From: Escherichia coli
GTDB lineage: Bacteria; Pseudomonadota; Gammaproteobacteria; Enterobacterales; Enterobacteriaceae
Assembly: GCF_024223415.1 (NCBI RefSeq)
Contig: NZ_CP100500.1
Length of the DNA stretch: 64,000 nt
Direction: 5' to 3' (one strand)
Shown: one piece after another, positions 42,393 through 43,385 of the stretch
How positions within the stretch are numbered: the first letter of the stretch is position 1
Layout of the letters: every line of letters begins with the position of its first letter
Translations under genes and position numbers: made by a program
The notes under the pieces: generated by a model
What the model was told of the DNA's origin: nothing
The model's input: the letters and a program-made list of their open reading frames with translations, nothing else
Databases searched by the model: none

Positions 42393-42605
42393 GCATGATA
42401 AGACGCGTCAGCGTCGCATCAGGCATCGGTGCATAACCGCCGGATGCGGCGTGAACGCCTTATCCGGCCTACCGTTCAGGCGCAGGTTTGTAGGCATTAT
42501 AAGATGTGCCAGCGTCGCATCAGGCATCCGCGCACAATTGCCGGATGCGGCACAAGTTTGTAGGCATGATAAGACGCGCTAGCGTCGCATCAGGCATCTG
42601 CGCAC
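42393..42605. repeat. REP/BIME array (about four REP units)
   Basis: Repeated GCCGGATGCGGCG and CAGCGTCGCATCAGGCA units in alternating orientation. Confidence 0.8.
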
Positions 42606-42607
42606 AA

Positions 42608-43105
42608 TTATAAAATGATACGCTCCCCAGCACTCAAATCCGTTATGTCTCCCGCCCAATTGATGGGATATAACCCTCGCGCGACATCGCGATGGAACGT
42701 TGAGAATGGCCAATCACTCACTTGCTTTACCCAGCCATGTTTTACTGGATTTATATAAATATAATCAACATGATGGCGATAGTTTTTGGTATTGCGGATG
42801 GTGTGCTCCCAAAAACGTGGTTGCCAGATATTTTTCAATCCACAAGCATGGGTGAACTGCTTTTTAATCTCCCGCCAGCGAGAGGAAAAATCATCATCGC
42901 TTTCGGGTAATGTCCATATGCAATGCATATGCTCCGGCAAAACTACCCAGGCATTAATTTCAAAAGGTCTGGCTCGCTTAACTTTAATAATGGCGTTACG
43001 GAGCGTCTGGTACTGGGTAGTCAAAAGTTGGCTTCGACGATTCCGTAAATTCACCGTGAAAAACCAGGTTCCCCCTTTGATGTAATACCGACGATATTCA
43101 GACAT
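42608..43105 (-). CDS. rayT: REP-associated tyrosine transposase
   Basis: 165-aa ORF recognised as a REP-associated tyrosine transposase from the translation; flanked on both sides by REP arrays. Confidence 0.85.
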   Translation of the reverse strand: MSEYRRYYIKGGTWFFTVNLRNRRSQLLTTQYQTLRNAIIKVKRARPFEINAWVVLPEHMHCIWTLPESDDDFSSRWREIKKQFTHACGLKNIWQPRFWEHTIRNTKNYRHHVDYIYINPVKHGWVKQVSDWPFSTFHRDVARGLYPINWAGDITDLSAGERIIL

Positions 43106-43184
43106 GGCGACTCCTTTTTCTCAACGGTAAGAAGAAAAGGAAAGGTCGGCAATGAGGTGATGGAATAACGGGAAAGCGGCTCGC

Positions 43185-43385
43185 AAAAACGCACAAATTT
43201 GTAGGCATGATAAGACGCGCCAGCGTCGCATCAGGCATCGGCGCACAACTGCCGGATGCGGCGTAAACGCCTTATCCGGCCTACCGTTCAGGCACAAATT
43301 TGTAGGCATGATAAGACGCGTCAGCGTCGCATCAGGCATCTGCGCACCACCGCCGGATGCGGCGTAAACGCCTTATCCGGCCTAC
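43185..43385. repeat. REP/BIME array
   Basis: Same REP unit types as at 42393-42605, on the other side of rayT. Confidence 0.8.

Follow-up and report, generated by a model that had tools for sequence, protein, structure and literature searches.

Does a transposase gene that lies between two arrays of short palindromic repeats belong with those repeats, and if so, as what: a domesticated enzyme among its substrates, an element that still transposes, or an idle relic among repeats that vary by themselves? The question is raised by rayT, the gene for the tyrosine transposase that is associated with repetitive extragenic palindromes (REPs), in a 64,000-nt stretch of Escherichia coli DNA (contig NZ_CP100500.1 of assembly GCF_024223415.1), referred to here as the window. 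A preliminary description had placed the gene between two arrays of the REP units it is thought to mobilise, with a third array at 46578-46715, and had called the arrangement a known one. The open reading frame was found at 42608-43105, the flanking arrays at 42389-42595 and 43201-43385, within 4 nt of the coordinates first given, and the third array at 46580-46714, between yafJ and gmhA; the raw sequence can be read well enough to place such a locus and its arrays within a few bases. The arrangement is indeed already known, having been published as the REPtron (PMC3333891), and we hold with high confidence that the locus is the E. coli REPtron, in which a single-copy, domesticated rayT is fixed between yafL and lfhA and flanked by arrays of y and z2 REPs that form type 2 bacterial interspersed mosaic elements (BIME-2). 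The finding in itself is of little consequence: this is a textbook locus, whose structural, biochemical and population aspects have been described before.

The 165-residue product of rayT matched chain A of PDB entry 4ER8 ("TnpArep", the K-12 enzyme) over residues 1-164 with E=1.2e-111, and it reached the family threshold of the NCBIfam model NF047646, "REP-associated tyrosine transposase", with 174.9 bits against a cutoff of 80. Positions 42300-43500 were 100% identical to the chromosome of E. coli AR_0085 (NZ_CP029741.1), the strain name used below for this allele, and the gene is annotated as rayT in that record. The gene was 93.0% identical to that of K-12 at the nucleotide level and the protein had the same length, with ten substitutions (M34T, H37N, D45A, G69S, A102T, D108N, D149N, V154I, F157L and S165L); a crystal structure exists of a protein 94% identical to RayT. 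The HUH histidines H59 and H61 (H59-M-H61) were kept, as were Y115, R78, K82, R97 and E161. In the K-12 protein, Y115 is catalytic, R78, K82 and R97 contact REP bases and E161 is auto-inhibitory (PMC3479197; PMC8266576); the metal is held by the HUH histidines (PMC3479197), and Y115F has been used as the catalytic mutant (PMC8266576). Four of the substitutions, D149N, V154I, F157L and S165L, fell within the last ~25 residues, the span of the auto-inhibitory C-terminal extension described by Messing et al.

Relative to K-12, the synonymous divergence (dS) of rayT was 0.283 and the nonsynonymous divergence (dN) 0.029, giving a dN/dS of 0.10; in all other pairs the ratio was 0.07-0.19. As judged from its sequence, rayT is intact and under purifying selection. 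Since the named catalytic and base-contacting residues are kept as well, the AR_0085 protein should act as the K-12 protein does. In vitro, the latter, TnpA_REP, binds the single-stranded REP hairpin, for which it needs the 5' GTAG and the AA/GC bulge, cuts at CT on the 5' or the 3' side of the hairpin via a Tyr115-linked intermediate, and rejoins or transfers the strands (PMC3333891, PMC3479197, PMC8266576). The C-terminal tail with E161 occupies the active site, and its removal greatly increases cleavage (PMC3479197).

The repeats were located by a search for GTAGGCMKGATAAGRCG with up to 2 mismatches, the null being 100 dinucleotide-preserving shuffles. The motif occurred 11 times in the window, as compared to 0.04 +/- 0.20 times in the shuffles, and all 11 matches lay within the three arrays, with none elsewhere in the 64 kb. 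Individual units were resolved by an arm-wise scan combined with an IUPAC motif search; a fuzzy regular expression for the whole unit missed 5 of the 12 units, a consequence of non-overlapping matching. The arrays flank rayT directly, the left one (rayT 3' side) beginning 12 nt from the stop codon and the right one (rayT 5' side) 95 nt from the start codon. The units, the gene and its upstream spacer are given below with their strand, which for a REP is the strand that carries GTAG.

42389-42424, + strand: z2 REP, first unit of the left array; hairpin of -9.7 kcal/mol, z-score -4.1
42439-42472, - strand: y REP of the left array; hairpin of -12.2 kcal/mol, z-score -3.8
42490-42525, + strand: decayed z2 REP of the left array, its stem broken by substitutions; 2 motif mismatches, no hairpin, z-score 0.0
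42540-42551, - strand: y REP remnant of the left array, a single arm; complete y unit, with 31 nt more, in K-12
42560-42595, + strand: z2 REP of the left array, 12 nt from the rayT stop; found by arm-wise scan and folding
42608-43105, - strand: rayT (yafM, tnpA_REP), intact Y1 HUH nuclease/transposase of 165 aa; identified by PDB 4ER8 and NF047646
43106-43200, - strand: non-REP spacer 5' of rayT (5' untranslated region and presumed promoter region); from the sequence
43201-43236, + strand: z2 REP, first unit of the right array; motif and hairpin
43251-43284, - strand: y REP of the right array, which with the preceding z2 makes up an extra BIME-2 unit; 101-nt tandem duplication
43302-43337, + strand: z2 REP of the right array; motif and hairpin
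43352-43385, - strand: y REP of the right array, homologue of the REP co-crystallised in 4ER8 (PMC3479197); motif and hairpin
46580-46613, - strand: decayed y REP that opens the third array; motif, no hairpin
46631-46666, + strand: z2 REP of the third array; motif and hairpin
46681-46714, - strand: y REP of the third array; motif and hairpin

The z2 units carry GTAG on the + strand and the y units on the - strand, giving an alternating inverted orientation with linkers of 14 and 17 nt. The units are 34 and 36 nt long and differ from the y or z2 consensus at 0-2 positions. Alternating inverted y and z2 units with short linkers define the BIME-2 family (PMC3333891), and the unit typing suggested in the preliminary description thus returned BIME-2 arrays of z2 and y. 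In a figure legend of Messing 2012 (PMC3479197) the z units of the REPtron are called "z1", but their length fits z2 (37 nt) according to PMC8266576. When folded as single-stranded DNA, 9 of the 11 complete units gave a hairpin closed by a 4-nt loop, its two stems separated by a 2x2 internal loop and the GTAG left free, with energies of -9.7 kcal/mol for z2 and -12.2 kcal/mol for y and z-scores from -3.1 to -4.2, while the two decayed units (folded as 42490-42527 and 46578-46613) did not fold and had z-scores near 0. The view that the flanking repeats are the units of RayT also stood, in that both y and z2 are bound and cut in vitro by K-12 TnpA_REP (PMC3333891, PMC3479197, PMC8266576).

Tandem Repeats Finder reported a period of 101 nt at 43191-43385 (1.9 copies, 95% matches) and one of 70 nt at 42479-42609, and direct repeats of 164 nt, 90% identical, lie on both sides of rayT. 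The Rfam model naRNA4 (RF02564) matched the minus strand four times, at 42392-42469 (73 bits), 43204-43281 (82 bits), 43305-43382 and 46634-46711 (80 bits), all within 73-82 bits as compared to a gathering threshold of 59.5. The minus strand, on which the naRNA4 matches are stronger, is also the strand from which yafL and rayT are transcribed. A query containing the arrays had at least 15-59 matching places per E. coli genome, with a median of at least 30, indicating high copy number and dispersal.

These results bear on the suggestion that the repeats have nothing to do with rayT and are chance palindromes or rho-independent terminators of the ordinary kind. Their location at the 3' ends of genes is the sole point in its favor. 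The motif was far more frequent than in the shuffled sequences, however, the units adhere closely to the y and z2 consensus, no T-tract terminators were found in the arrays by a terminator scan, and matching places recur by the dozen in each genome. The suggestion is refuted by the sequence and we give it practically no credence.

The distribution of rayT was surveyed in 5426 complete E. coli genomes, ten rayT-positive loci being fetched for detailed comparison. The gene was present in 3574 genomes, at a median of 1 place per genome and never at more than 2, and 3579 of the 3588 places were chromosomal. It lay between lfhA and yafL in all ten of the loci, the position reported for 74 of 110 genomes in the study that described the REPtron (Ton-Hoang et al. 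2012, PMC3333891). A REP was found next to the rayT stop, at the same position and in the same orientation, in 10 of 10 loci; it was z2 in nine and a 30-nt unit in ABW_A19. The comparison of array copy number that had been proposed showed variation between strains: the 3'-side array ranged from 122 to 317 bp in the ten strains and the 5'-side array was doubled in AR_0085. In two strains that lack rayT, 13P477T and GPEC1035, only a z2-y-z2-y-z2-y array lay between lfhA' (the truncated lfhA) and yafL. This array aligned end to end with the predicted product of recombination between the z2 units on either side of rayT in strain 4/0, a 23-nt indel in the first unit being the sole difference. In strain 2010C_5028, hicAB took the place of rayT, and in EC09 and EJN001 the locus had been rearranged by insertion sequences (IS). 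The variable 3'-side array, the "precise excision" of rayT with retention of the BIMEs, the replacement by hicAB and the IS-mediated rearrangement had all been described by Ton-Hoang 2012 (PMC3333891), whose population results are reproduced here on a set about 50-fold larger. The presence or absence of rayT in E. coli was treated as known by Park et al. 2021 (PMC8049555).

The same survey bears on whether the two arrays and rayT together constitute an autonomous element of the IS200/IS605 type that still transposes as a unit. A Y1 transposase gene between sub-terminal hairpins with a 5' guide tetranucleotide resembles IS200/IS605 (PMC3333891), and RayT has weak similarity to the Y1_Tnp and IS200 transposase models. 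As in the TnpA proteins of IS608 and ISDra2, an HUH motif is combined with a single catalytic tyrosine, a hairpin in single-stranded DNA is recognised, a tetranucleotide is present 5' at the hairpin foot and the gene lies between hairpins. However, the similarity was below the cutoffs, at 17.6 bits as compared to 23 for PF01797 (Y1_Tnp) and 13.3 as compared to 55 for NF033573, and a Pfam search at the default threshold gave no match for RayT, Y1_Tnp appearing only sub-threshold at E<=10. Moreover, the median was one copy per genome across the 3574 genomes, the lfhA-yafL site was the same in all fetched loci, the units closest to rayT on its two sides are both z2 and point the same way, and variation in one array is independent of that in the other. 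Unlike the IS enzymes, RayT is monomeric, has an auto-inhibitory C-terminal tail and is encoded by a single-copy gene at a fixed locus that is not a mobile unit, and its substrates, instead of two IS ends, are REPs and BIMEs scattered through the genome by the hundred. An autonomous element is effectively refuted, and we regard it as extremely improbable.

RayT has been proposed to act in trans on hundreds of genomic REPs and BIMEs, creating, diversifying and amplifying BIME units. Its substrate is probably single-stranded DNA at replication forks, as proposed in models (PMC3333891). Each of lfhA', rayT and yafL has an array at its 3' end, and these arrays would probably serve, independently of RayT, as local transcription attenuators and mRNA stabilisers, a role that has been shown for REP325. 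The z2 direct repeats that flank rayT also render the gene prone to deletion; the repeats of 164 nt and 90% identity explain why such a deletion is easy.

Several observations weigh against the REPtron explanation, 1) the E. coli enzyme has no demonstrated activity in vivo and is auto-inhibited by its tail (PMC3479197), 2) REP numbers were similar in strains with and without rayT according to Ton-Hoang 2012 (PMC3333891), whereas Park et al. 2021 found more REPs in rayT-positive genomes (PMC8049555), 3) no sigma-70 consensus site was found upstream of rayT by a promoter scan, 4) rayT is a pseudogene in O157:H7 PV15-279 and in strain PT62, and is therefore dispensable, and 5) the array changes at the locus may come from host recombination rather than from RayT. 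The pseudogene of PV15-279 has a W99* mutation and is annotated "internal stop" (locus L007, 2001-2498), while that of PT62 has W14* (locus L005, 2001-2498); the flanking REP arrays are kept in both.

Alternatively, rayT could be a retained but idle relic. Host processes would then account for all of the array variation, including gain and loss of units and deletion of rayT: replication slippage, unequal crossing-over that depends on RecA, and gene conversion among BIMEs that are 90-95% identical. The arrays would matter only as terminators or stabilisers in 3' untranslated regions. The direct repeats around the gene, the rayT-less allele that has the structure of the predicted homologous deletion product, the loss or replacement of rayT in one third of the genomes, the pseudogenes in O157 and PT62, the auto-inhibited active site (PMC3479197) and the terminator and stabiliser role of REP325 (bioRxiv 10.64898/2026.03.23.713779) are all in agreement with this explanation. 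Against it, dN/dS is 0.10 although dS between alleles reaches 0.3, and all catalytic and DNA-contacting residues are kept, which argues for sustained purifying selection and would be surprising in an idle gene; in vitro, these very REPs are substrates of the K-12 enzyme (PMC3333891), and the rayT-positive genomes are richer in REPs (PMC8049555). We consider an idle relic unlikely, though an explanation to be taken seriously.

The REPtron can be compared with other REP systems. REP325, the naRNA4 locus of the yjdM-yjdN operon, has the same BIME-2 unit type in tandem downstream of a gene, and its RNA is the source of the naRNA4 model that each z2-y pair of the window matches, but it has six units as compared to 2, about 2.5 and 1.5 in the three arrays of the window. 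REP325 is a partial Rho-dependent attenuator and mRNA stabiliser, while the part in nucleoid compaction that had been proposed for REP325/naRNA4 is now contested (bioRxiv 10.64898/2026.03.23.713779). The REPIN-RAYT systems of Pseudomonas (Bertels & Rainey 2011; Nunvar 2010) likewise have a single-copy, vertically inherited RAYT gene, flanking cognate REP doublets and repeats throughout the genome. They differ in that the RAYT is of Group 3, while that of the window is of Group 2, the REP sequences are others, several RAYT-REP families are often found per genome, and the REPINs are symmetric, in contrast to the asymmetric y/z BIMEs of E. coli.

The closest relative is the REPtron of K-12 MG1655 (rayT/yafM b0228, 4ER8; Ton-Hoang 2012, Messing 2012). 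The locus yafL-rayT-lfhA'-lafU'-dinB with its Flag-2 scar is the same, as are the y and z2 unit types, the z2 that abuts the rayT stop and the y unit that supplies the yafL stop, and the third array has the same structure (ungapped alignment). The 3'-side array is y-z2-y-z2 in K-12, to which AR_0085 adds a leading z2, one y being truncated. On the 5' side, K-12 has a single BIME and AR_0085 has two.

The latter difference may go beyond the findings of Ton-Hoang 2012, where the 5'-side BIME was invariably single (PMC3333891). The two BIMEs of AR_0085 arose via a 101-nt tandem duplication of z2-y (43191-43385), which is absent from K-12 (gap 43251-43352) and from the 8 other rayT-positive loci fetched. 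When 43000-43500 was used as query, the full 501 nt matched in one piece at 100% in 5 genomes among the matches listed, two NCTC strains with the AR_0085 rayT allele matched at 99.1% in two pieces, and 53 of the 60 matches listed spanned 400 nt, corresponding to one BIME. Among the matches listed, the doubled 5' BIME was seen only in 7 genomes, exactly those with a 100%-identical rayT. The extra 101-nt unit could be a product of RayT activity or of ordinary slippage or unequal crossing-over.

The second difference from K-12 concerns divergence. The preliminary description had considered the REP arrays to be recombination hot spots in an otherwise conserved block, and the latter part could not be sustained. 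In 200-nt bins, 41200-43800 was 89-95% identical to K-12, as compared to 97-100% on either side, and in 400-nt bins over the ~21 kb shared with K-12 the median identity was 98.25% and the minimum 94.75%. Divergence from K-12 was greatest in lfhA', in rayT with the spacer upstream of it, and in the 3' half of yafL. The dS relative to K-12 was 0.283 in rayT and changed sharply in the middle of yafL, from 0.077 in the 5' half to 0.505 in the 3' half, as compared to 0-0.14 in dinB, dinJ, yafQ, dpaA, yafJ and gmhA. The 3' part of yafL was 91.2% identical to K-12-type strains, and the first 90 nt of the rayT upstream spacer were 86.7% identical to K-12 and 98.9% to O157. Means and minima of the yafL bins were corrupted by indels and by an IS1 insertion in some strains, so that only named pairs were used. 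Gene content is no more uniform, since Flag-2, dinJ-yafQ, yafNO and rayT are each present or absent depending on the strain.

The divergence is not peculiar to one strain. Across genomes, identity to the AR_0085 rayT was at least 99% in 7 cases, 95-99% in 331, 90-95% in 3243 and 80-90% in 0; for the 3' part of yafL the corresponding figures were 35, 2192, 3167 and 1. A control segment in dpaA (411 nt, ~1.3 kb from the yafL segment) gave 1594, 3838, 0 and 0. AR_0085 as the sole outlier was rejected, since rayT identity was 92.8% between K-12 and O157, 93.6% between K-12 and strain 4/0 and 92.2% between O157 and 4/0. Several allele classes of rayT, each 5-7% apart, coexist in E. coli, and K-12, O157 and 4/0 are mutually 6-8% apart.

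A possible donor of the AR_0085 allele was sought with a degenerate pattern for the coding motif WVVLPEHMHCIW in one genome per species. The rayT genes of E. albertii and Escherichia sp. MOD1-EC7003 were 92.5-93.6% identical to both E. coli alleles, and the flanks in MOD1-EC7003 were 89-95% identical to the window. On these sequence comparisons, the divergence of rayT within E. coli is equal to that between Escherichia species. In the one-genome-per-species WVVLPEHMHCIW scan, nothing was closer than 94% to the AR_0085 rayT, so that no donor emerged and introgression from the sampled species is unsupported.

Three side observations also came from the scan. A 1310-nt contig binned as a Collinsella sp. 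metagenome-assembled genome (L041) carries an E. coli-type rayT, 94% identical, and is almost certainly a binning contaminant. In MOD1-EC7003, all three REP arrays are much larger (locus L049, 1051-1552, 2153-2500 and 5733-6451), the yafJ-gmhA array occupying ~720 bp as compared to 135 bp in the window. Pseudocitrobacter faecalis DSM 27453 (locus L024, 2432-7176) has yafL, rayT and an intact lfhA with E. coli-like spacing and ~88-91.5% nucleotide identity to the window, followed downstream of lfhA by a 379-aa open reading frame, probably lfhB. An identity of 88-91.5% between Pseudocitrobacter and E. coli appears too high for the distance between genera. The comparison suggests that rayT and the adjoining edge of the Flag-2 island were transferred horizontally as one.

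The divergence peak may also extend the results of Ton-Hoang 2012. It may have been caused by recombination with diverged lineages, by the survival of old haplotypes, by neutral drift beside the Flag-2 pseudogene or by the REPtron itself. On one proposal the REPtron would lie at the center of deep haplotype divergence, either because it causes the pattern, through import of DNA from diverged Escherichia lineages stimulated by REPs or RayT or through cis-acting RayT nicking that raises the local mutation rate, or because old haplotypes are kept by selection. In both cases the doubled 5' BIME, seen only with this rare allele, could be a footprint of RayT amplification in vivo. We regard this proposal as improbable. 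The lineage of the doubled-BIME allele and the divergence peak could nevertheless be useful leads for REP-RAYT biology, pending population-genetic analysis; because RayT activity has never been demonstrated in vivo, natural variants are the only available footprints.

The annotated gene order in NZ_CP029741.1 is dinB, lafU, an N-terminally truncated FlhA homologue (lfhA'), rayT, yafL, dinJ, yafQ, dpaA, yafJ, lpcA/gmhA and fadE, and it is identical in K-12 MG1655, where the genes lie at 243-252 kb in the inverted orientation. The two genes that adjoin the REPtron are as follows.

40674-42392, + strand: lfhA' pseudogene, a Flag-2 FlhA homologue without its N-terminus; Pfam FHIPEP, 631 bits, profile positions 99-656; "incomplete FlhA" in NZ_CP029741.1
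43382-44131, - strand: yafL, an NlpC/P60 C40 peptidase gene in the same orientation as rayT; Pfam NLPC_P60 and annotation

Both genes end within REPs. The TAG stop of lfhA' falls within the GTAG of the first REP (42389-42392), and the yafL stop codon (43382-43384) lies inside the last y REP of the right array, which ends at 43385.

The junction of lafU and lfhA' (39923-40813) is a Flag-2 deletion scar as in K-12, according to an ungapped alignment; in strains 4/0, D6 and 2010C_5028, by contrast, flhA/lfhA is intact. On the far side of dinB, dinB and yafP are directly joined at 38797-38803, the yafN-yafO toxin-antitoxin pair (~750 bp in K-12) being absent from AR_0085. The dinJ-yafQ toxin-antitoxin pair, at 44341-44882 in the window, is missing between yafL and dpaA in several strains (loci L009, L010, L011, L012 and L014), so that, less than 1 kb from the REPtron, the presence of another element is polymorphic as well. 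Farther away, the alignment with K-12 stops at two variable islands, both adjacent to tRNA genes. One, at 23000-29414 beside thrW (tRNA-Thr, 29339-29414), contains IS1 and YfjI/DUF3987 genes, and the other, at 51500-60301 beside aspV (tRNA-Asp, 60225-60301), contains type VI secretion remnants (vgrG, hcp and RHS).

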